Virus record (IMG/VR): IMGVR_UViG_2579778894_000014
Location: 1 to 15,503 of that record
DNA length: 15,503 nucleotides
Source of the DNA: a virus
Lineage: Duplodnaviria > Heunggongvirae > Uroviricota > Caudoviricetes
Strand: one strand, 5' to 3'
Below, piece by piece: positions 1,351-14,976 of the stretch. The position numbers were made by a program, and so were the translations under genes. The notes below the pieces were generated by a model. It worked only from the letters and a program-made list of their open reading frames with translations, had not been told where the DNA came from and ran no database searches. Numbering within the stretch: position 1 is the first letter of the stretch; each line of letters begins with the position of its first letter.

Positions 1351-1810
1351 TTACCACCCCACCAGCATCTTTAAACCTGGAAATCAGGTCACCGATTTTA
1401 TGTTCATACTGACCGTAACCTGCACCAGGTAACGACGCCCAGATATTGCTGCAACGGTCGATTGCCTGACGAATATCGCCACGGTCAATCATCGGTAAAG
1501 CGCCACGCTCTTTAATCTGCTGCAGCGCCACAGCGTCCTGACTTTCTGGCGAAAAATCTTTCAGGCCAAGCTGCTTACAGTAGGCATCCCACCAGCGTGA
1601 AAGAAGCTGATACCGGCCTGCGGCTGTTGATTTAAGCTTCGGGTTTAGCGTGACAAGTTTGCGAGGGTGATCGGAGTAATCAGTGAACAACTCACCTCCG
1701 ACGATAACGTCATAACCGTGATTACGTGTCGGTTGTCGCCCGTTATCCGTTCCTTCTGACCATGCCACCATATCCAGGAAAGCTTTACGTTGGGAATTTA
1801 GTGTCTGCAT
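1334..1810 (-). CDS. R: Endolysin, lambda R-type lytic transglycosylase
   Basis: 158 aa, the same length as lambda R and nearly identical to it as I recall the lambda sequence (QRKAFLDM.AWSEGTDNGRQ.TRNHGYDVIVGGELFTDYSDHPRKLVTLNPKLKST.AGRYQLLSRWWDAY.KQLGLKDFSP.SQDAVALQQIKERGALPMIDRGDIRQAIDRCSNIWASLPGAGYGQ). GGAG Shine-Dalgarno 7 nt upstream. Follows the holin gene with a 3-nt gap. Confidence 0.95.
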   Translation of the reverse strand: MQTLNSQRKAFLDMVAWSEGTDNGRQPTRNHGYDVIVGGELFTDYSDHPRKLVTLNPKLKSTAAGRYQLLSRWWDAYCKQLGLKDFSPESQDAVALQQIKERGALPMIDRGDIRQAIDRCSNIWASLPGAGYGQYEHKIGDLISRFKDAGGVVNEADL

Positions 1811-1813
1811 GAA

Positions 1814-2155
1814 TTACTCCTTAGAGCCACCAAACTTGTTACCGATTACTCGCATTGCAGCCCCACGAATAGCATCGACACCGATCAGCCCAACACCACC
1901 ACCAATGGCAACAGAAAGCGATTTAGGCCATCCGACATACTCAAGAGCGGATGCAAAAGTCAGCGTCAGAGCACCACAGAGCAAAATCTCAAGCGTTTTT
2001 CGTTTCCAGCCGCCGCCACCGCCAAAATAGGCAATGCGCAAGCCAGCCATAACAATTGACATAACCACTGCGCCCAACGGCGTATCTCCACGCCACCAAC
2101 TTTGTAAGAGTTCCAGTAAGTCAGGCCAGGAATGAGGAGCATTGTGCATTTTCAT
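1814..2155 (-). CDS. Holin with MKM dual-start motif
   Basis: The track ORF starts at 2173, but GGAGGT (complement of 2162-2167) lies 6 nt upstream of the ATG at 2155, and the protein then begins MKM with a second in-frame ATG at 2149, the same dual-start arrangement as lambda S. The product has hydrophobic TM segments, Gly-rich stretches and a charged C-terminus, and directly precedes the endolysin. The sequence is not lambda S itself. Confidence 0.75.
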   Translation of the reverse strand: MKMHNAPHSWPDLLELLQSWWRGDTPLGAVVMSIVMAGLRIAYFGGGGGWKRKTLEILLCGALTLTFASALEYVGWPKSLSVAIGGGVGLIGVDAIRGAAMRVIGNKFGGSKE

Positions 2156-2255
2156 ACTTCCCACCTCCGCCATTACGGGGTGTTGTTGAAAGGCGGGCCC
2201 TGCGTATACGCCCGTAGGATTGGGTTATGAGCCGTCCTTCGGTGGGCCCTGAATA

Positions 2256-2279
2256 CAAAAAAAGTTCGCCATAGCGAAC
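2256..2279 (-). terminator. Intrinsic terminator (candidate tR'-like) about 100 nt upstream of holin
   Basis: Read on the minus strand: GTTCGC-TATG-GCGAAC (6-bp perfect stem, 4-nt loop) followed by TTTTTTT. On the plus strand this is A7 at 2257-2263 then the hairpin at 2264-2279. Confidence 0.5.
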
Positions 2280-2506
2280 CTTGTTAAATTTGTTAAAAAA
2301 GGAGGTTATTTAACATAATGTACGTTATAGGAACCACACGATCCCCGCTCGCAATAGATTTGCGATGAAAGGCCTATTTAATCAACTTAAGTGGTCCAGA
2401 ATGACGAAATTCGAGTGAATAAAAGGTGCATAAAAAAGGGCAAAAACTGCATAGCGTTTTTTCGCAGCGAAAGCCCTGTTTTATTAACTTTTCCCCAGAA
2501 TGGGGC

Positions 2507-2533
2507 AATAAAAAAGGCCCCCTTGCGGAAGCC
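2507..2533 (-). terminator. Intrinsic terminator downstream of the 113-aa ORF
   Basis: Read on the minus strand: GGCTTCC-GCAA-GGGGGCC (7-bp stem including two G-U pairs, GNRA-type loop) followed by TTTTTTATT. Confidence 0.45.
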
Positions 2534-2600
2534 TCTTCGTGATGAACTGTTTTCAACAGATATCAGGCTAATCGGCTTTTTGGAATTCCACAACTATTTT

Positions 2601-2942
2601 TTATCTTACCTTGATGCCTGATGCCGTCAGATGTTTACGACAGTCCTGAATACCTTCGTTATAACCCGCATCGTAGAAGCTATCCGGCTTTGCCTTCAGC
2701 GCAGGAAGCGTAACGCTGGTAGCTCTTCGTTCGGCCAGAACACCTGCCTGAAAGAGTGTCCACATCAACTGAACTGCTGAATCACAGTAAGTAACATCTT
2801 CACTGTACAATTCTCGTTCAATCCTGATGCCAAGTTGAGCCTTCATTGATGCGCCAATATTACCTTTGACCTGCAACGACAGGTCTGGGTACCTCTGTTC
2901 CATGAAGCTTTCAAATCTGTTGCGAACGCTGATCAGAGCCAT
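2601..2942 (-). CDS. Hypothetical protein in the Q-to-lysis gap
   Basis: 113-aa ORF starting 31 nt after the Q stop, with a GGGAA-type SD a few nt upstream. No signal peptide and no family recognised by me. Plausible protein composition. Confidence 0.6.
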   Translation of the reverse strand: MALISVRNRFESFMEQRYPDLSLQVKGNIGASMKAQLGIRIERELYSEDVTYCDSAVQLMWTLFQAGVLAERRATSVTLPALKAKPDSFYDAGYNEGIQDCRKHLTASGIKVR

Positions 2943-2973
2943 CTGGTTCCCTTACGTGATTGATTGCTGGATA

Positions 2974-3396
2974 TTATGCCGCCGAGCAGCTCCTACGCAA
3001 AGTCCTGATAGCCTGAGGCTTTGACTGAACCGACTGATCCATTTCGAGCACCACATCCAGCATGGCTAAGCAACCGTCAATAAATCCCTCTGCCGCCTGA
3101 AGCCTCTTCAGAACGTGGGTGTGAGATACGCCGAGCTTCTCACCCATCGCCCGCACGGGCATGGCCTGGACGTAATGCCACTCAAGGAGCGTGCACAGAT
3201 ACGGATCTTTTTTCTTCAGGCAGCTCATAGCGGAGTTGATGATAAGACCGTCATTGTCACTGCATTTCAGCCTTCCAGACTGCGTCGCGGGTAGCAGATT
3301 CTTAAACCCGGCTGCAACAGGAGGAAAGTAGACGCTACCACCTTCACTCGCTGCCCAGCCACCCCAGCGCTCTAAAACCTGTTGAATATTACGCAT
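2974..3396 (-). CDS. Q: Late-gene antitermination protein Q (Phage_antitermQ family)
   Basis: 140 aa. N-terminus MRNIQQVLERWGGWAA...AAGFK and later KRLQAAEGFIDGCLAMLD resemble E. coli prophage Q proteins (QuuD-like) as I recall them. GAGGT SD upstream. Lies upstream of and co-directional with the lysis and packaging genes. Confidence 0.8.
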   Translation of the reverse strand: MRNIQQVLERWGGWAASEGGSVYFPPVAAGFKNLLPATQSGRLKCSDNDGLIINSAMSCLKKKDPYLCTLLEWHYVQAMPVRAMGEKLGVSHTHVLKRLQAAEGFIDGCLAMLDVVLEMDQSVQSKPQAIRTLRRSCSAA

Positions 3397-3441
3397 AGCT
3401 CTGACCTCTACGTTTTGCTACGTTTGGAAATTTTCTACTAC

Positions 3442-3672
3442 TCAATACTCGTTGAATGTCAGGTGGCCGCTAACACTGACGTTTGGCCCGTCAGATAACA
3501 CAAGCTGGAAATTGTCGTCGCAAACAGAGCAGCCGAGGTCAATAACTACCGTTTTGTCGTGTTTATGCGCTCGCATGGCGACATCGCGAATAAACACGCT
3601 GTTACTAGCGCAGCGTGGGCAGGTAATTTCGTTATTTCCGTCGATATGATTTTTTAATCCTGAAACTTTCAT
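3442..3672 (-). CDS. Small zinc-ribbon protein (CxxC...CxxC), function unknown
   Basis: 76-aa ORF with GGAG SD 8 nt upstream of the ATG at 3672. Paired cysteine motifs CPRC and CSVC. Sits between the iteron array and Q. Confidence 0.6.
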   Translation of the reverse strand: MKVSGLKNHIDGNNEITCPRCASNSVFIRDVAMRAHKHDKTVVIDLGCSVCDDNFQLVLSDGPNVSVSGHLTFNEY

Positions 3673-3721
3673 GTTGTTTACTCCAGCTAGTTATTTGCAA
3701 ATATTTGCAAGTTAATTTCCG

Positions 3722-3987
3722 GGTGACGGCTAGGTGACGCGTAATTACATATCCGTCACCTGCTGCAAAGCGCGCCATATAAAGCCTGAAGATGTTTTAG
3801 GTGACAGGTGACGGTTGATTTTAGTTCTATATATATATAAGCGATCGTATAATACCTAAAATACACACTCTCGCGTATATAGTTTTAAATTCTGCCGTCA
3901 CCTGTCACCTTTAGCACATTCCCCATTGTTTTATATATACTTTTTAAGGTGACGCTTAAGCGTTTTGCCGTCACCTAGCCGTCACCT
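3722..3987. repeat. Mirror-symmetric iteron array (10 GGTGAC/GTCACC hexamers) flanking an AT-rich core; candidate replication origin
   Basis: GGTGAC at 3722, 3733, 3800, 3807, 3948; GTCACC at 3755, 3897, 3904, 3970, 3981. Outer pairs are spaced 11 bp, inner pairs 7 bp, and all positions are mirror-symmetric about ~3854. The outer arms are near-perfect inverted repeats (GGTGACGGCTAGGTGACG). The centre 3814-3896 is AT-rich with a TATATATATA run. TTGCAA boxes at 3695-3710 and 4002-4017 flank the array. It lies immediately 3' of the replication-protein gene. Confidence 0.6.
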
Positions 3988-3989
3988 TT

Positions 3990-6251
3990 TTACAATCCAG
4001 ATTGCAAAATTTCGCAAGATTTATATATTTCGCGCAATTCTTCGTTGCTGAAATCGTTATTTTTTACAAGAATCCAAATCCTATATACAAACCCGTCAAT
4101 TTTTACGCGTACGGGTTCCCGCTTTGTTCTTTCTTTCAAAATGCGAGTAATATGCTTCTGGTTAATTTCTACATCCATTCCTGCTTCTGCCAGTATTGCG
4201 TTAACAATTTGTTGATAAGTCATTGCTGGCACAGGCGGATTATCCAGGATTTCAATAAGAGCAGCCTCCACATCGCTCTTATTGCTTTCAATCATCAGAA
4301 GGCGTTCTTTCGTCTCGGGGGCGCGCTGCCAGTTAAAGCGAGACAGGTCAACGCCCATTAGATACCAGTACACCTGGGCGATAAAGTCGCTGTCGCTTAG
4401 CGCACCGTACAGGCTGGCGTAATGCTCTTCAGTTGCGGCGAAGTCAGGGCCCCCCAGCACAGCTATACGTCGGTCTTCCTCTGGCAGCGCCAGCGCATCA
4501 AAGTGGTTGGTGTAGAACAGAAAGCCGGTGTATATATCCATCGTTTTTTTGCTGCCATATTTGCGGTTCACTTCAAACCGTGGTTCTGTCAGCACGTCAC
4601 GGATCTTATCGTTCACCTCATACCGCTTATCGTTTTCGCGCACCTCGTCAATGGTGCATAGAAGTGTATTGTACAGATAGTCATGGAACTGGTTATCGCA
4701 CAGGATCTTCATGCGAGTACGAGCACAGTTCCACGGGCCAAGCACGCGCTCCATTAACTGACTGACCCATCCTCTGCCCGTACCATGTGCGGTAGCCACA
4801 TGCAGAATAGAAATCGGGCATCGACGCTCCGGACGCTGAACCATCCACCCCAGACGGGCGATGAAAAACTCGCGCTGCCAGGCATCAGGTACCAGATACG
4901 CCATATGATTAAGGAACGTGGACACCTTACTTGTATCCGCTGTACGTGGATGCTCAGGCATATAAAATTCGTTTATCTCAAACCGCCCGTCGAAACGCTC
5001 GATAATACGTCCCGCACCGGGCTTATAGCCTGTCGTCTCAGCAATCTTCTTATGCCGATGCTCTATCCACCGTTTGGTTGCGGGAGTTGGTTGTCCTTTC
5101 CCTTCTGGCGGGAACTGGTAAGGCGCCATCAGGTTTTTGAACGACTTCATATCCATCATGCACTGATATGGCGGTCGGCTAAGATCACATACCTGGTCAC
5201 CCTCGATGACGTAGATAAAGCGTTCCAGAAAATGAGCTGTCATATCTGTATTAATATCGGTAAATTCAGGCTTATCGCCATCTTCAGCCACCGTGAGATC
5301 TTCGAACAGGGATTGCGTATAGCCGTAGCCTTCCAGCCAGTCGGCATCAGTAAGCCCCGCATCGGTGTTGTGCATGCTTTTAAAATGTCCCTGTTCAAAT
5401 CCCCCCGTCCCTTTTGGGAAATACTTAATGGATGTTTCGCTGCAACCGTTGCTGTATTCTGACTCATCCCGAAACGGTTTCAGATTGCGGGAACCATCAG
5501 AGCTGACTGACAGAGTCCACCCGTTCGCGTCAAGCCAGTCGGCGACATCATCTGTCGCGGAAGGATCAACACAGGAAAGGTCACGCTGACGTCCTGCACC
5601 TGCGGTATAGCTGTCTTTCACGGGTAAGTTATCCGCCAGACGCTGCCACAGGCTTTCGAGCTGTTCAGATGTAATTTTCAGAGGTTCGCCGGGCAAACCG
5701 CTGTCCCACTGAATACGTTCGCCTGCCGGATGGGTACCACAAGCCACAAACTGCTGGCCCTTAGCGAGCAGCTCTATTTGTTTGTTTTCGCCTTCCAGGC
5801 GGTGACCACGTTTACGGTAGTCGCCATCAACAGCAATCAGGTACAGGCATTTATGACTGTCAGCCCGCCAGCGACGTGGCGGAAGTTCCCCCAGGCATGA
5901 TAGGATAATATTGCGTACGATCTCCTGCATCCCGGCGTCATTGATATCGCAGTCCAGAGCCACCACCCCGTCGCCAGTACGAACGCAAATACCGTAATCG
6001 GGTTCGTTCGACCACCGGGCAAAATCGTTTTCCGTAACAACATAGTTAGCCCAGTCGGGGATACCAACAACCTTACGTTGGCCATTGTAGCGACTGGGGG
6101 TTTTGCCGAAATTATGAGACAGCTTGCTATTAGGCGACAGTTCTGCACAGGGATTGGACACCACAGGTAAAAGCCTGTCTGTCATCCCCAACACCAGATC
6201 GAAGTAGAACCACTCATCGGGCGTAGCTCCCCATGGTTTGTTATCAGACAT
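3990..6251 (-). CDS. Replication protein, primase-like (primase-polymerase-type N-terminal region; P4 alpha-like size and context)
   Basis: 753-aa ORF whose start overlaps the stop of the Cro-like gene, suggesting translational coupling. The N-terminal region contains VVALDCDI (a DxD-type catalytic-like motif) and GTHPAG. hhhhDE-like TIDEV is present in the C-terminal half. I could not find a canonical Walker A GxxxxGK[ST], so helicase activity is not supported from sequence. Iteron array lies immediately downstream. Confidence 0.65.
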   Translation of the reverse strand: MSDNKPWGATPDEWFYFDLVLGMTDRLLPVVSNPCAELSPNSKLSHNFGKTPSRYNGQRKVVGIPDWANYVVTENDFARWSNEPDYGICVRTGDGVVALDCDINDAGMQEIVRNIILSCLGELPPRRWRADSHKCLYLIAVDGDYRKRGHRLEGENKQIELLAKGQQFVACGTHPAGERIQWDSGLPGEPLKITSEQLESLWQRLADNLPVKDSYTAGAGRQRDLSCVDPSATDDVADWLDANGWTLSVSSDGSRNLKPFRDESEYSNGCSETSIKYFPKGTGGFEQGHFKSMHNTDAGLTDADWLEGYGYTQSLFEDLTVAEDGDKPEFTDINTDMTAHFLERFIYVIEGDQVCDLSRPPYQCMMDMKSFKNLMAPYQFPPEGKGQPTPATKRWIEHRHKKIAETTGYKPGAGRIIERFDGRFEINEFYMPEHPRTADTSKVSTFLNHMAYLVPDAWQREFFIARLGWMVQRPERRCPISILHVATAHGTGRGWVSQLMERVLGPWNCARTRMKILCDNQFHDYLYNTLLCTIDEVRENDKRYEVNDKIRDVLTEPRFEVNRKYGSKKTMDIYTGFLFYTNHFDALALPEEDRRIAVLGGPDFAATEEHYASLYGALSDSDFIAQVYWYLMGVDLSRFNWQRAPETKERLLMIESNKSDVEAALIEILDNPPVPAMTYQQIVNAILAEAGMDVEINQKHITRILKERTKREPVRVKIDGFVYRIWILVKNNDFSNEELREIYKSCEILQSGL

Positions 6252-6254
6252 GGG

Positions 6255-6455
6255 TTACGCCTTTTGTCTAGCTGTCACTTCCTGAAAAAGCTTTTCTATC
6301 GCACGTACTGTAGAAAAGCGAGGGTCAGAATGAACCCCGGTGAGAAGCCGACTAATAGAAGACTGCTTCACGCCTGCAATTTCGGCAATTTGGTTTTGGG
6401 TATACCCTGAATCAATCAAGCTTTTGACCATCTCTTGTGGTGTTAGTCCGGACAT
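6255..6455 (-). CDS. Cro-like HTH (XRE-family) DNA-binding protein
   Basis: 66 aa with helix-turn-helix signature QNQIAEIAGVKQSSISRLL. GGAGA SD 7 nt upstream. Divergent from the CI-type repressor across a 141-bp region and first gene of the rightward replication operon. Confidence 0.75.
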   Translation of the reverse strand: MSGLTPQEMVKSLIDSGYTQNQIAEIAGVKQSSISRLLTGVHSDPRFSTVRAIEKLFQEVTARQKA

Positions 6456-8420: not shown

Positions 8421-8591
8421 ATGAAAAAAGGAATACAACCGATGAAACCTGAACACATCCATCGACTGACGGGGCGCGATGTTCTCCGTTATCGCCGTAA
8501 AAACTTCGATTTGATGACCGGTCTGGCCGTTGCCACTGCGCTCGGTCTGATCATCACTTTCATTCTCCTTGTAGCGAGGACCACAGTATGA
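8421..8591 (+). CDS. Small membrane protein (single C-terminal TM helix)
   Basis: ATG at 8421 (the track used GTG at 8409); an alternative in-frame ATG at 8442 is preceded by AAGGA. C-terminal hydrophobic segment LAVATALGLIITFILLVA. Stop overlaps the next ATG (ATGA), suggesting coupling. Confidence 0.5.
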   Translation: MKKGIQPMKPEHIHRLTGRDVLRYRRKNFDLMTGLAVATALGLIITFILLVARTTV

Positions 8592-9490
8592 GTTTAGAAA
8601 CCAGTCTAGAACTTAATAATCAACTTCTGGCACAACATAATGCGCTGCTTGAACGTCTTATCCGCACAATGGCATCAGGTATTGTTATGCATCCTGACAC
8701 GATTTCACGAGTGCAGGAATGTCGGGATACAGCAACTGAAACTGAAAATATGTCAGCGGCAATGACACTGGATGATCTGGAGTTCAGCGACGTTATCGCA
8801 CTGGCTGGTTTCTACCCGGTAGCCACCCCTATCACAGAAGATATGCTGCAACGTGCTGTTGCCTACCGTGATGCTGAAGGCGATAAACGAGTAGTTCAGA
8901 TTGATGCTCTCGACAGCGCATTGCAGGGCGTCAAACGAGCCAGGGCGCTGCTTAAACCTGCTCTCCTGGACCTGTCCCGTAACATCCTTAAGTTCTGGGA
9001 CGACCTGCCAACCATCGGCGAGCGACGTGCTTTTGCCGAGCAGCTACTTGATGCACCTGCAGATGGGCGTGATGAAGTTAAGCCGAAAAAGGCCAGTAAC
9101 AAAGATGGAGAACGCACGGGGCCGTTTTACGTCAAAAATGTATCCGGCACAGCAGCCAGTGAACTCCACACCTTACGCAAGTTGAACGAGATGCTTAAAA
9201 AAGGCCATATCGAGATCAACCGTGTTGAGTACCTTCAGCTGCAGGAAGAATTTGCACGCAGAGACGCAGCAAATTCCAGCCAGAATAATGACGCCAAAGA
9301 TGACCATACAATTGATTTCGCGGCACTACGCAAACAAGCTGAAGGGTTGATCCTCCAGTTAGCAAAAGGGGGCTACCGGGCAGAAGCTATTGCAATTCTG
9401 GAAAAACAGGGAGCCAGGAAACTTGGTGAAGTAACGGATGAAAATCTCGCTGAAGTAATCACCCTGGCTGAAAAAGCACTGGAGGGTTAA
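8588..9490 (+). CDS. Hypothetical protein
   Basis: 300-aa ORF, translationally coupled to the flanking genes. Acidic, helical-looking composition. No family recognised. Confidence 0.7.
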
Positions 9491-9492
9491 TC

Positions 9493-10794
9493 ATGCCAGA
9501 CGTTCACGCACAACTTTCTCCATCATCAGCGCATCGATGGATGCGCTGCCCAGGAAGTCTGGCGCTGGAGGCCACACAACCGGATAAAGAAACAACTTTT
9601 GCAATCGAGGGCACTACAGCGCACGCGCTTGCTGAAAAAGTTCTACGAAACAGGCAAAGCCACCCGGAACACTACGCCGGATGCAATGTTTCTATGTTTC
9701 TCGGCTCATACCCCCTTCGCGAAAATCCTGATGATACATCTGGCCCACAGGTGGATGATGAAATGGTCGAAGCCGTCGGCCGGTATGTTGATACGGTCTG
9801 GACTCTTGCACAGAATAATGAACTATTGGTTGAACAACGTGTTGATTTCTCACATATAACGGGTGTGGAAGAATCTTTCGGAACTGCCGACGGCATAATC
9901 ATCGCTGGTAACGAATTACAAATCCACGACCTGAAATATGGCAAAGGCGTCCGCATTGATGCAGAACAAAATGAGCAACTACAACTGTATGCTCTGGGTG
10001 CTCTCGAACAATTCAGCATGCTGTATGACTTTGAGACTGTAAGATTATTTATTCACCAGCCAAGGCTCAACCACGTTTCAGAATGGTCGTTAACCGTACA
10101 GGAACTTCAGTCTTTCGGTGAACGGGCACTGGAGGCCGCAACCAGTGCGATCCTTGTTCTCAATATTGCTGAATGCGAAGGCATTGAGACACTACCGCTG
10201 GAAAACTTCATACCTGGAGAAAAACAGTGCCGCTTCTGTAAAGCAAAAGCTATTTGCACTGCCCAGAAAATGCAGCATTTACAAACAGCGGCCAGCGATT
10301 TTGAAGATCTGACAAAGCCTGTCAGCGAAATAATCACCAATGCCAGCGCACGTGTACCTCTGTTAACCATTGAGCAGCTTGCAGAGATCTATAGCCAGGC
10401 CGACTTTATTGAATCCTGGCTAAAGGCAGTACGGGACCGGGTTCACGATGAACTCAATGCCGGACATCCGGTACCGGGGTTTAAACTGGTAACAGGAAAA
10501 CAAGGTAACCGGGCCTGGAGTGATGAAGAGGCAGCTCGCGCACTTCTGAAGGACCAGTTCAGGTACAAAACTGAAGAAGTATTCGACTTTAAACTTATTA
10601 GTCCCACAAAAGCCGAAAAACTTATCAAAAAGGCCAGTCCGCGCCGTTGGTCAAAAGTCGAGGCACTGATAACACGAGCTGATGGAAAACCCACCGTCGT
10701 TCCCGAGTCAGACCCACGCCCCGCACTCAATATCAACCCTGTAAATGATTTCGACGACGTATCCGACGATACGCTAACCGCAGACCTCATCTGA
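9493..10794 (+). CDS. PD-(D/E)XK nuclease, DUF2800-like (Cas4-like phage exonuclease)
   Basis: 433 aa. N-terminal [14 protein letters not shown] is characteristic of DUF2800 proteins as I recall them. [23 protein letters not shown] fits a D...D-x-K nuclease core, and the [10 protein letters not shown] cysteine cluster is Cas4-like. GGAGGG SD upstream. Confidence 0.75.
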
Positions 10795-10809
10795 TTTAAG
10801 GAAATACCC

Positions 10810-11358
10810 ATGAAACTGAAGCTGAACAATGTTCGTCTGGCCTTCCCGTCTCTGTTTGAAGCTAAAACTGTAAACGGCGAAGGCGATCCGCGTTTCTCCG
10901 CAGTATTTTTAATGTCTCCCAAACACCCACAACTGGAAGAAATCCGTAAAGCTATGAAGCAGGTAGCGAAGGAAAAATGGGGAGAGAAGTGGGAGCCCAT
11001 TTATAACCAGCTGGAGAAAAAACTCAATCTGTGCCTGCATGATGGTGATGAAAAAGCAGAGTATGAAGGCTTCCCCGGTAATTTCTTCCTGAATGCTGCT
11101 AACAAAGCGCGCCCAGCTGTTCTTGATCGCGATCGTTCGCCACTTATTCAGGCTGACGGACGTCCCTATGCAGGGTGCTATGTAAACGCCGTTATCGATA
11201 TCTGGGCACAGGACAATAATTTCGGTAAACGCATTAATGCCTCACTCGGCGGAGTCCAGTTCCTGCGAGACGGCGATGCATTCGCTGGCGGCGGAGTGGC
11301 AAGCGCTGACGATTTCGACGATATCAGCGAAGGTGCTGATGCTGAAGCACTAATTTAA
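10810..11358 (+). CDS. DUF2815-like phage protein (proposed ssDNA-binding protein)
   Basis: 182 aa. N-terminus MKLKLNNVRLAFPSLFEAK resembles DUF2815 family members, which typically pair with DUF2800 and a family A polymerase. Acidic C-terminal tail DDFDDISEGADAEALI. AAGGAA SD upstream. Confidence 0.7.
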   Translation: MKLKLNNVRLAFPSLFEAKTVNGEGDPRFSAVFLMSPKHPQLEEIRKAMKQVAKEKWGEKWEPIYNQLEKKLNLCLHDGDEKAEYEGFPGNFFLNAANKARPAVLDRDRSPLIQADGRPYAGCYVNAVIDIWAQDNNFGKRINASLGGVQFLRDGDAFAGGGVASADDFDDISEGADAEALI

Positions 11359-11373
11359 CCCTACTTCATAGAC

Positions 11374-11392
11374 GCCCGGTTAAACACCGGGC
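11374..11392. other. Perfect 7-bp stem-loop between convergent genes (possible factor-independent terminator lacking a U-tract)
   Basis: GCCCGGT-TAAAC-ACCGGGC, located between the DUF2815 stop (11358) and the stop of the reverse-oriented membrane gene (11411). Confidence 0.3.
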
Positions 11393-11410
11393 TACTGATT
11401 AGGCGTATAA

Positions 11411-12040
11411 TCACTCAGGAATCTTAATCTTTCTCAATTCTTTATTTAGTTCACAGATCTTTTTCTTAGACGGGAAAGTATCATACATCCAAAAACCAAC
11501 AGTCTCTAAAACTATTATCATAACCATATACACAAGATAATTTAAAAGGCCTTCATTTTGCCCTATGGAAATAATGCAGATAATAGAAAAAAGGGTAAAC
11601 AGCACAAAACACAGAAAGGAAAACAGACGACTAATAATAAATAAAAAACCTGAAAAATCAACATTAATAAAAAACACTCCGTTATCTTTCTCTATATAAT
11701 TCTGAAGCTTAATCAACTGATTTATATACTGTCTTTTTTCTAATCTATTGCAAATGTAAATAACATCTCTTCGGTTATAAGATGATTGCAATTTCAGCGC
11801 ATCACGAATAATTTTATCATTTATTCTTTTTTCTATGGCACTCTTATCCTCCTCATCCAGATAACGTTCATACTTAACTAAATATAAAATTAACTTCTTA
11901 ACATATTTAGGCTCTTTATACTTATAATTAAAAATGATCTTTCTTATCCAGACTCCCATAACAATCAAACATGAAAAAATATATCCAGCTATTTTCTCCA
12001 GATGCTCTGTATGGTCAATCAAGTATTGGATCATATGCAT
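11411..12040 (-). CDS. Membrane protein of unknown function in an AT-rich inserted segment (moron)
   Basis: 209-aa ORF on the opposite strand to the flanking replication genes. The segment ~11400-12080 is conspicuously AT-rich (roughly 30% GC by eye) against ~50-55% in the neighbours. Predicted N-terminal TM (IAGYIFSCLIVMGVWI), a Lys/Glu-rich middle region and 2 C-terminal TM helices (FLFIISRLFSFLCFVLFTLFSIICIISI; LVYMVMIIVLETVGFWM). Confidence 0.65.
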   Translation of the reverse strand: MHMIQYLIDHTEHLEKIAGYIFSCLIVMGVWIRKIIFNYKYKEPKYVKKLILYLVKYERYLDEEDKSAIEKRINDKIIRDALKLQSSYNRRDVIYICNRLEKRQYINQLIKLQNYIEKDNGVFFINVDFSGFLFIISRLFSFLCFVLFTLFSIICIISIGQNEGLLNYLVYMVMIIVLETVGFWMYDTFPSKKKICELNKELRKIKIPE

Positions 12041-12086
12041 AATTAATCTTTTAATCAGTTAATAGAATAAAAACCAAGGTAAACAC

Positions 12087-14150
12087 ATGTCCAATATACT
12101 ATGGGGCGACCTGGAAACCTATTGCGAAATCCCTATTACGAACGGTACCCATGCGTATGCCGAAGGCGTTGAAGTGATGCTTTTCGCATGGGCTATCAAC
12201 GACGGGCCAGTAAACGTGTGGGATATCACTGCCGGTGGTGGTATTCCACACGGCTTATACGAAGCAATCGCAGACCCTGAAACCCTGCTTTATTTCCATA
12301 ACTCTCACTTCGACCGCACCGTTCTGCGTTATGCAATGCCGCGCCTGGCACCGCCAGTCGAACGTTGGCGCGACACAATGGTGCAGGCGCTGGCGCACGG
12401 CCTCCCGGGGTCTCTGGGGGAACTCTGCGAAATACTCGGCGTCCCGCAAGACAAAGCGAAGGACAAAGAAGGTAAAGCGCTGATCCAGCTGTTCTGTAAG
12501 CCACGCCCGAAAAACAGCAAACTGCGTCGGGCCACCAGTAAAACCCACCCGGAAGAATGGCGGCGCTTTGTTGCTTACGCCGGACTGGATATCGAGGCAA
12601 TGCGCGAAGTCTATAAACGTCTGCCGAAGTGGAATTATCAGGGGACAGAACTGGCGCTCTGGCATCGTGATCAGCAGATCAACGACCGGGGCGTCTGCAT
12701 GGACATTCAACTCGCGCGCGCTGCGATCGAAGCGGTAGACCAGGAGCAAAAGCGCCTGGCAAAGCGTACACAGGAAATGACTGATGGCGAAGTGCAGGCA
12801 GCCACACAACGAGACGCGTTGATTAAGCACATTGTTGAATCCTACGGTGTGGAGCTACCAGACATGCAACGCAGTACTCTGGAACGTCGTATTGCCGACC
12901 CCGATTTACCATCTGCCGTGAAAGAACTGCTGGCTATCCGCCTGCAGGCCAGTACTACCAGCACCAGTAAATACAAGGCACTGATGAAAGGCGTAAGCCA
13001 CGACGGGCGCTTACGCGGTACGCTACAGTTCTGCGGGGCGTCACGTACCGGTCGTTGGGCCGGACGGCTATTCCAGCCCCAGAACCTTCCCCGCCCTTCA
13101 CTAAAACAGGAACAAATAGACGAAGGCATCGAAGCACTGAAAGCCGGATGTGCAGACCTGCTGTTTGACAATATCATGGAACTAACCAGTTCAGCGTTAC
13201 GTGGCTGCATTATCGCGCCAACAGGCAAAAAGCTGGTGGTAAGTGACTTGTCGAACATTGAAGGCCGTATGCTGGCATGGCTGGCGGGAGAAGAATGGAA
13301 ACTGAATGCATTCAGAGAGTACGACGCCGGAACGGGTCCGGACTTATATAAACTGGCGTATGCAAAAGCTTTCGATATTGCACCAGATGATGTTGATAAA
13401 CACATGCGTCAGATCGGTAAAGTCATGGAACTCGGTCTGGGTTATGGTGGTGGTGTGTCGGCCTTCATCACTTTTGCACTGGTTTACGGTCTCGATCTCG
13501 ACGAGCTGGCGAACGCCGCACTACCAAACATTCCCCGCGATGTTATCCGCGAGGCGAAAAGCTGGTACGACGAATCGGTTAAACGCAAGTCAACCTACGG
13601 GCTTTCTGAACGGGTATTTATCGCCTGCGACTCACTTAAACGTCTCTGGCGCCGGGCGCATCCCGCGACCTGTGATTTCTGGTACGAACTGGAGCGCACC
13701 GTCCGCACTGCAATCGCCACACCGCAAAAAACATTGTATTGCGGTTATCTTAAAATCCGCCGCGATGGCGCGTGGCTGCGCATACAGCTACCATCCGGAC
13801 GCGCTGTATGCTACCCGTCTCCGGTTATCGAAAAAGGGAATATCACCTACATGGGGGTTAACTCTTATTCGCGTAAATGGCAACGACTCAAAACCTACGG
13901 CGGAAAGCTGGTGGAGAACATCACCCAGGCGGCCGCCCGCGACATTCTGGCCGGAAACATGCCGCTTATCGAAGATGCCGGTTACAGCATTGTGCTGACG
14001 GTACACGACGAGGTGATCACCGAAGCACCTGACACAGAAGATTTCAACGATAAAGCGCTTTCCGCGCTTCTCTCCACTGACCCCGAATGGGCGCCCGATA
14101 TCCCACTGAACGCTGGCGGTTTTGAGGCGTACCACTACAAAAAAGATTGA
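12087..14150 (+). CDS. Family A DNA polymerase (PolA-like) with N-terminal 3'-5' exonuclease domain
   Basis: 687 aa. Exo motif WGDLETY near the N-terminus. Polymerase motif A ([20 protein letters not shown]), motif B ([16 protein letters not shown]) and motif C (VHDEV). Confidence 0.9.
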
Positions 14151-14214: not shown

Positions 14215-14976
14215 ATGCAGGAACTAACTGAAATGCCGATCACCTATCCATACCCGAGAGAAACTTTTCCTGACTTTTTGAGGGAGTGTGGGTTCACCAA
14301 TTTTTCCCACGAACAGCGTGAGACTTGTGACTGCTATCGTTTAACGAATGGCGTAATTGTTAACCTTTACACCACCCGGACCATTCAGTTTCAAGGTAAC
14401 CCTCAAGAACGTCCCAATGTTGAAACTGCAATAATGACCCATTTAGGAACGCCGCCCACGGCAACACCACTAGCCGTAGAACAGCCATCTGAGCTCCCCA
14501 AAAAGATATTCATTGTTCACGGCCATGACCATACTGCAAAGGAGCAACTTGAGCTAATCCTTCATAAACTTGGATTACCAGACCATTTCATTTTGCAGAA
14601 TACGGGAGGGACTGGACTCACCATTATTGAAGAGCTTGAACGTGAAATTGGGCAAGGACAAACTGCTACCCGTTTCGGGATTGTTCTTTTGACACCTGAT
14701 GATATGGGATACTCAAAGCGCGCCGGTGAAGCAGAAATCCAACCCCGCGCAAGACAGAACGTTGTACTCGAGATGGGTATGCTTCTTTCGTCCTTAGGGC
14801 GCAGCAATGTAGCAATCCTTCAGAAACAGCACCTAGAACAGCCTTCTGATGCTAACGGGATTTTGTATCTGAATTTCAACGACCATGTACGTGAAACAGT
14901 TCCTCGTCTAGTGCAACGGTTACAAAATTCTGGTTTCGAATTTACACAAGCTCAAATAGCTAACGCTTCCTCGTAA
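14215..14976 (+). CDS. Two-domain protein: unknown N-terminal domain plus C-terminal TIR-like Rossmannoid domain (CAP12/PycTIR-type family)
   Basis: 253-aa ORF with AAGGAA SD upstream; last gene of the operon before a strong terminator. The C-terminal ~150 aa contains KKIFIVHGHDH, GGTGLTIIEELE, FGIVLLTPDD and NVVLEMGMLLSSLG, which I recognise as the pattern of prokaryotic TIR-like nucleotide-binding domains (conserved Glu followed by Gly). The N-terminal ~95 aa has no recognised family. Domain assignment is from memory, not a search. Confidence 0.6.
   Translation: MQELTEMPITYPYPRETFPDFLRECGFTNFSHEQRETCDCYRLTNGVIVNLYTTRTIQFQGNPQERPNVETAIMTHLGTPPTATPLAVEQPSELPKKIFIVHGHDHTAKEQLELILHKLGLPDHFILQNTGGTGLTIIEELEREIGQGQTATRFGIVLLTPDDMGYSKRAGEAEIQPRARQNVVLEMGMLLSSLGRSNVAILQKQHLEQPSDANGILYLNFNDHVRETVPRLVQRLQNSGFEFTQAQIANASS

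Follow-up and report, generated by a model that had tools for sequence, protein, structure and literature searches.

ORF113, a gene of 113 codons in the window (the whole stretch of prophage DNA analysed here, 15,503 nt), is probably a dispensable accessory gene that lies between the antiterminator gene Q and the late promoter pR' and is made together with Q, and not cargo that depends on Q for its expression. This reading was obtained by comparing the sequence of the window with those of related prophages and phages. An earlier note on this DNA had placed ORF113 at positions 2601-2942, 31 nt after Q and between Q and the lysis genes, and this description was confirmed. Behind ORF113, the same minus strand carries a holin gene, a lysozyme ORF (named by RefSeq as glycoside hydrolase family 24), then an Rz-like ORF and finally TerS. 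The note had also proposed that ORF113 is accessory late cargo. The accessory part of this proposal stands, as shown by natural loss variants, and in other lineages homologues do occupy a position like that of the Shiga toxin genes; in this phage, however, the putative pR' is located 3' of ORF113. The following features of the window were used.

1814-2173, minus strand: holin gene, lambda S-type (PF05106, E 1e-27; phrog_126)
2252-2282, minus strand: third intrinsic terminator, 5' of the holin gene (9-bp stem, then T7; z-score -3.5)
2431-2477, minus strand: second terminator-like hairpin with U-run, in the late leader (from folding)
2508-2538, minus strand: intrinsic terminator, read as tR' (12-pair stem at 2511-2538, GCAA loop, U-run to about 2508)
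2565-2593, minus strand: putative pR' (-35 TTGTGG at 2588-2593, 17-nt spacer, -10 TAGCCT at 2565-2570)
2601-2942, minus strand: ORF113, PF26207/phiTE_015 family (113 aa, ATG start)
2948-2953, minus strand: Shine-Dalgarno sequence AAGGGA of ORF113, 5 nt 5' of the ATG (read directly from the sequence)
2974-3396, minus strand: antiterminator gene Q, Q21 family (PF06530, E 5e-42)
3442-3672, minus strand: ORF76, small CxxC...CxxC zinc-ribbon-like protein, directly 5' of Q
3990-6251, minus strand: Prim-Pol/DUF5906 primase-helicase gene
6255-6455, minus strand: cro-like gene
9493-10794, plus strand: DUF2800 PD-(D/E)XK nuclease gene
10810-11358, plus strand: gene for an Enc34-type ssDNA-binding protein
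12087-14150, plus strand: family A DNA polymerase gene

Gene order and proposed expression

The antiterminator of the window belongs to PF06530, the Q21 family (PMC9388147). Its stop codon and the ATG of ORF113 are separated by 31 nt (2943-2973), and a consensus scan of this gap gave neither a promoter nor a terminator. On the other side, a non-coding stretch of 427 nt separates ORF113 from the holin gene, which opens the lysis cassette and is the first late gene to follow the putative pR' and the terminators. ORF113 would thereby be packed between the Q stop codon (31 nt 5') and the -35 hexamer of pR' (7 nt 3'), as the last cistron of an early-right operon formed by the cro-like gene, the primase-helicase gene, ORF76, Q and ORF113. 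Since ORF113 lies upstream of pR', we infer that it is most simply co-transcribed with Q, so that antitermination by Q would not be needed. After induction, ORF113 would be transcribed together with Q and translated from its own Shine-Dalgarno sequence AAGGGA, which is kept in the E. coli alleles; RNA polymerase modified by Q would then read through tR' (2508-2538) to the holin gene.

Further observations concern the surroundings of these genes. For ORF76, all family matches stayed below threshold. Most E. coli relatives and the 611R5-type prophages cease to be homologous to the window at about position 3421, which marks a mosaic joint just 5' of Q. An Rfam scan of positions 1700-3500 gave no match at the gathering score; below it, a weak, terminator-like match to ctRNA_p42d covered the 2508-2538 hairpin. 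No tRNAs are present. On the plus strand, a promoter-like sequence TTGTTA-18-CATAAT (2290-2319) lies antisense to the late leader and points towards ORF113 and Q; it comes from a promoter scan in which the total number of sites was no higher than expected by chance. The replication module of the prophage is split by the CI/Cro switch, with one part at 8588-14150 (plus strand) and the other at 3990-6251 (minus strand). Within the former, the ORFs at 8588-9490 and 11411-12040 had no family match. The prophage also contains an ORF for a TIR-domain protein of 253 aa (14215-14976, plus strand) of the CAP12/Pycsar-effector type (PF10137, E 3e-31), a candidate anti-phage defence or abortive-infection gene.

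The ORF113 protein and its family

ORF113 is a genuine, selectively maintained phage gene. That it is more than a chance ORF follows from its homologues, which have identities of 35-99%, and from an NG86 dN/dS of 0.06 against the 86%-identical allele of locus L084 (46 synonymous and 20 non-synonymous differences), close to the value for Q (0.07). The homologues are encoded in prophages of Escherichia, Rahnella, Yersinia, Erwinia, Serratia, Photorhabdus, Xenorhabdus, Proteus and Limnobaculum, and a further one in a phage deposited as Vibrio phage vB_PvuS_Pm34. With a GC content of 47.4%, ORF113 is not set apart in base composition from the window (47.9%) or from the neighbouring genes (46-54%), as might be looked for in a moron.

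The earlier note had recognised no family for ORF113. Scans against a local copy of Pfam-A and against NCBIfam likewise gave no matches, and the local Pfam copy evidently did not contain the PF26207 model. The precomputed annotation of the near-identical proteins P0001 and P0002 nevertheless includes PF26207.1 (Phage_phiTE_015), an identical protein is named "phiTE_015 family protein" in RefSeq (WP_001174014.1), and ORF113 matches PHROGs 37465, 15831 and 343. The label "head closure" of phrog_15831, which matches the C-terminal half of ORF113, was set aside as implausible for a gene beside Q. A profile was also built around phiTE_015 itself from its relatives and compared with the profile of the window clade by hhalign, which gave a full-length alignment over 91 columns with a probability of 98.2% (E 6e-14). 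According to these comparisons, ORF113 belongs to PF26207/phiTE_015, a catalogued and uncharacterised family. The literature search on phiTE_015 and PF26207 returned no paper, and neither a characterised relative nor a solved structure was found for the family.

In the alignments, ORF113 has the layout of the family, a single small domain of about 85-115 aa. It shares with PF26207 and PHROG 343 the phage or prophage origin, the size, the full-length homology and the succession of an N-terminal R..FE helix, a central Trp helix, an LP strand and, at the C-terminus, a (D/N)E(A/G)I.DC..L..G helix. Residues F10 and P80 are invariant across the window and phiTE_015 clades, and W61, L79, E96, D100 and G109 reach a conservation of at least 90% across both. 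Compared with canonical PF26207 proteins, however, the window clade is a divergent branch, in some members of which the precomputed Pfam matches are weak or absent and which is distinguished by the motif YDAGYNEG. The genomic settings differ as well: members of the window clade stand beside antiterminator genes, whereas canonical phiTE_015-type genes are located in the nin region of lambdoid phages beside the genes for NinX, DUF551, NinB and NinG. Genes of the phiTE_015 clade are placed between replication genes and lysis or packaging genes, and phiTE_015 itself comes from a large virulent phage, where it is encoded in an early region. The clade of the window is narrow, as an exhaustive HMMER search of 1.84 billion representative sequences gave 16 matches, two of which (P0051 and P0055) were discarded as repeat-protein artefacts. 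One protein of 143 aa, P0048, combines the C-terminal helix-turn-helix (HTH) part of a Q21-type Q with a family member; most likely, a Q gene that was truncated or frameshifted is read through there into the neighbouring family gene.

The ORF113 product (12.7 kDa, pI 8.6) is predicted to be soluble, and no hydrophobic, transmembrane or signal segment was detected (highest 19-residue Kyte-Doolittle mean 0.94). The two cysteines, C53 and C101, and the absence of a signal peptide had been remarked on earlier and are correct for this protein, but the pair varies among relatives, in which C53 is replaced by F, S, N or K and, in many of them, C101 by S; the idea of conserved cysteines was dropped. 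Homology search and structure prediction, both suggested by the earlier note, led to the family described above and to two AlphaFold2 models with mean pLDDT values of 74 and 78. The predicted fold has helices at residues 3-17, 55-74 and 89-107 and short strands at 76-77 and 111-112. Foldseek searches of both models against the PDB gave nothing below E 0.3 (best E 0.35), with TM-scores of at most 0.38 among the matches listed, and the BFVD matches were exclusively uncharacterised phage proteins. A sequence search of the PDB with the family profile returned PRDM4 as the sole match (E 1.3), which is spurious. No similarity to Q, HTH proteins or transcription factors was detected in Pfam, NCBIfam or the PDB sequences, and the PADLOC defence models had no match to ORF113 at E <= 0.1.

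A putative late promoter downstream of ORF113

The TTGTGG hexamer of the putative pR' begins 7 nt 3' of the ORF113 stop codon, and the spacer following it carries a conserved AATTCCAAAAA at the position expected for a Q-binding element (QBE). Just after the stop codon, the window shares the 17-mer TTGTGGAATTCCAAAAA with a Rahnella prophage. Because the ORF113 proteins of the two are 45% identical, coding similarity does not explain the conservation of this 17-mer, which occurs once in the window against 0.01 occurrences expected. A scan of IMG/VR found TTGTGGAATTCCAAAAA in 56 contigs, in about 40 of which it adjoins Q or Q plus ORF113. It lies 2-7 nt 3' of an ORF113 homologue (41-100% identity) in 22 contigs, including Rahnella-type alleles with diverged coding DNA, and the intact copies in this set are spaced 18-31 nt from Q. 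Another 18 contigs have the same promoter block and a Q of 60-71% identity without ORF113; here TTGTGGAATTCCAAAAA either starts 11-18 nt past the stop codon of Q or is entered by the Q frame. The other matches are mostly in unrelated sequence and look like chance occurrences. The comparison of Q-to-S intervals across related prophages, which the earlier note had recommended, therefore placed the promoter block either 3' of ORF113 or abutting Q. The hexamer 17 nt 3' of TTGTGG has the form TAnnnT, in which the T, A and T never change among 17 distinct sequences but the three central positions do.

The note had credited ORF113 with its own terminator. A hairpin with a U-run is indeed present at 2508-2538, about 65-95 nt 3' of the stop codon, but it is better read as the tR' of the late promoter, where it would close a pR' leader of about 50 nt. 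In most related loci a hairpin with a T-run is likewise found about 50 nt further on, as is also the case in Min27, a phage of the 933W type. In most members, the segment past the -10 hexamer reads GTTAAGAGTGGTnAC (initial transcribed motif TAAGAGTGGTnAC) and also occurs after Q of Min27 and mEp390; the initial transcribed region of the window, GATATCTGTTGAAAACAG, departs from the clade consensus GTTAAGAGTGGTCAC.

[quoted passage not shown] The promoter block of the window contained neither direct repeats of the phage 21 type (TGAGCA twice, 8 bp apart) nor a clear -10-like, sigma-dependent pause element. Positions 2565-2593 nevertheless appear to be a functional pR' with a Q-binding element in the spacer, and 2508-2538 its tR', because the block tracks Q with or without ORF113, the TAnnnT hexamer and the hairpin are present, and the arrangement corresponds to the architecture of phage 21. 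As a candidate late-promoter and Q-binding signature for this Q clade we propose TTGTGGAATTCCAAAAA, 6 nt and TAnnnT. To our knowledge, a Q clade with this signature has not been characterised experimentally. In ten of the IMG/VR contigs without ORF113 (L013, L016, L032, L036, L039, L045, L049, L054, L059 and L063), the Q frame crosses the -35 hexamer and the spacer of the putative pR' and reaches its stop codon at the TAG with which the -10 hexamer (TAGCCT or TAGTCT) begins. The Q gene and its presumed target promoter overlap there, since the frame ends inside the -10 hexamer.

The promoter block bears directly on the view that ORF113, like stx, depends for its transcription on Q-modified polymerase coming from pR' and acts late. 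Its location between Q and the holin gene would agree with this, as would the homologues found behind a promoter and a terminator in L003, L005, L091, L093, L112, L095 and L097-L103. In the lineage of the window, however, the sole conserved promoter/terminator block follows ORF113, the same block is contiguous with Q in relatives without ORF113, and the 31-nt gap between Q and ORF113 is too small for a promoter together with a pause site and a terminator. We consider late expression of this kind improbable for ORF113. The comparison with 933W and Min27 illustrates the difference. There, the order is Q, pR', tR', tRNAs and stx, and ORF113 falls into the same broad stretch from Q to holin; unlike stx, it is on the Q side of the putative pR' and tR', and its product is neither secreted nor toxin-like. 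The Stx-type position after tR' is held by the ORF113 homologues of other lineages.

A closer parallel to ORF113 as a gene on the Q side of pR' is gp47 of phage mEp390. In this phage (L008, 1865-2900), a Q21-family Q is followed by a bidirectional terminator, the reverse-strand gene gp47, a pR'-like TTTACTCTGTTAAGAGTGG with a terminator, and the holin gene. As with ORF113, the insertion is located between the Q stop codon and a TAnnCT-GTTAAGAGTGG block just before holin, which makes gp47 another case of cargo that separates Q from its promoter. In contrast to ORF113, gp47 is an unrelated gene of 272 aa on the opposite strand, bracketed by the bidirectional terminator; ORF113 is oriented like Q, with no terminator in between.

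Natural loss, other lineages and possible role

Prophages of the 611R5 type lack 286 nt of ORF113, whereas Q, the ribosome-binding site and ATG of ORF113, its last 18 codons and all of the downstream region are retained. All five substitutions in the alignment of this remnant are synonymous in the original frame, which suggests that it derives from a formerly functional, diverged allele. We searched 5,426 complete E. coli genomes with the segment from Q to the leader (window 2200-3450); 144 of them matched at least part of it, among which 62 had a full ORF113 and 31 had the exact deletion junction in common. In E. coli O103:H2 12009 and ETEC H10407, the locus is identical to that of the window. 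Copies with a one-nucleotide frameshift and a product of 58 aa also occur (e.g. P0045). In one E. coli O121 genome (NZ_CP119441.1, 3589845-3591870), the segment with Q, ORF113 and the leader is interrupted by IS1A. The records of the vB_EcoM-611R5 type were rejected as proof of viable virions without ORF113, as they are prophages predicted by PHASTER and not isolates. From the natural loss variants, ORF113 appears to be dispensable for prophage persistence, and phages of this type would be viable without it. Presence in all phages with the same Q type and promoter block, as for a core regulator, was not found. The possibility raised by the earlier note that ORF113 is a conserved core late regulator is contradicted by the deletions, the frameshifts and the relatives that have the same Q and block without the ORF.

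In its inferred position in the early-right operon 5' of pR', its small size, its dispensability and its variability among relatives, ORF113 resembles the accessory genes of the lambda nin region, which are delayed-early and non-essential (e.g. nin5 deletion). It differs from them in lying after Q and abutting the -35 hexamer of pR', and its sequence is not related to the named Nin proteins.

The ORF113 subfamily was found downstream of an antiterminator gene in every informative locus examined, in differing layouts and beside antiterminators of four Pfam families (PF06530, PF03589, PF06323 and DUF1133). The Qlambda-type loci L003, L005, L090, L091, L093, L110 and L112 have a lambda-like promoter between Q and the family gene, and the promoter spacer of L005, TTGAATAAGATTG, resembles the matching stretch of lambda pR'. 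In these loci a terminator usually follows the promoter and precedes the family gene. No hairpin with a T-run was detected between promoter and family gene in L110 (3856-4001) and L090 (2841-2986), and there the gene could be expressed from the lambda-like promoter without Q. In L095, a Q of the Q21 family is combined with a 933W-like promoter block, and promoter and terminator precede the family gene. L097-L103 have a DUF1133 gene in the Q position, followed by TTGACT-16-TATAGT with a terminator and then by the family gene. The order in L096 and L111 is a Q82-type Q, promoter and terminator, an ORF6N gene, HicAB and the family gene. As judged from these layouts, the picture of a slot for late cargo fits the other lineages and not the window, and early expression is not a family-wide property, because the homologues elsewhere are located 3' of a promoter-like site after Q. 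A scan of genome contigs gave one degenerate remnant alone (L067).

Several of these loci contain additional genes of interest. In the Limnobaculum-type loci L096 (2365-4968) and L111 (1814-5983), the cluster after the Q82-type Q holds, besides the family gene, an ORF6N protein, HicA/HicB, an uncharacterised ORF of 170 aa and a Phd/Fic-Doc module. In the Proteus-type locus L005, a stand-alone Peptidase_C39 protein encoded on the reverse strand (5322-5732) abuts the family gene before holin. In L097, also Proteus-type, a multi-pass membrane protein of 122 aa is encoded on the reverse strand (3438-3806) about 115 nt past the family gene and before holin.

ORF113 might also be an autonomous moron, expressed constitutively, in the lysogen too, from a promoter in the 3' end of Q and acting as a lysogenic-conversion or exclusion factor. 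The interval between Q and the lysis genes is a hot-spot for morons, as exemplified by NmpC in phage 434 and gp47 in mEp390, a terminator follows ORF113, and a weak TTGCGT-16-CATAAT is present at about 2965-2992 of the window and in the 611R5-type allele (TTGCAC in L084). This element, which overlaps the end of Q, could give ORF113 independent expression in the E. coli alleles. However, its -35 hexamer matches the consensus at three of six positions, the site was not flagged by the consensus scan, CATAAT is dictated by the Ala and stop codons of Q, and a comparable element is absent from the Rahnella-type, L087 and L092 lineages. As the product moreover matches no defence model and is neither a membrane nor a secreted protein, the moron reading is unlikely.

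A third view assigns ORF113 a role in the switch itself: by acting on RNA polymerase, sigma70, NusA or the loading of Q, it would tune late transcription or the timing of lysis. The clade is placed first or close 3' of antiterminators of four Pfam families while both flanking modules vary, which speaks for such a role. Against it, the gene has been lost by deletion or frameshift in many prophages, relatives with the same Q type and promoter block do without it, the broader family is located in the nin region away from Q, and similarity to known transcription factors is lacking. There is little chance that this modulator reading is correct. Q21 and Qlambda are not structural homologues (PMC9388147), which makes direct binding of Q by ORF113 unlikely.

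The single unusual feature of ORF113 is its adjacency to antiterminators of four families. This adjacency could reflect selection for the timing of expression, a link to late transcription or a permissive insertion site; in mEp390, the unrelated reverse-strand gp47 occupies the equivalent junction of Q and promoter block. It is speculative, and at best a tentative possibility, that the product is a non-enzymatic, cytoplasmic protein-binding factor at the early-to-late switch; host takeover or anti-defence would be examples of such a role. That it is a hitherto unrecognised accessory factor of this switch, acting via RNA polymerase, sigma70 or NusA, is doubtful; alternatively, ORF113 would simply be cargo at a permissive site.

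ORF113 is an ordinary, already catalogued accessory gene with a position-locked association with antiterminators, and it belongs to PF26207, a family with a wide distribution among prophages of Enterobacterales. What the analysis usefully corrects is its place in this phage, where ORF113 appears to lie upstream of the late promoter. A gene between Q and holin is not always Q-dependent late cargo, and in this Q21-family clade, cargo can be lodged between Q and this block, as for ORF113 and gp47 of mEp390, where relatives have the promoter block contiguous with the end of Q or overlapping it. Expression timing deduced from gene order alone can therefore mislead, which matters for induction-linked prophage cargo in pathogenic E. 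coli. If the adjacency to Q reflects function, ORF113 would be a tractable small target for studies of the late switch.
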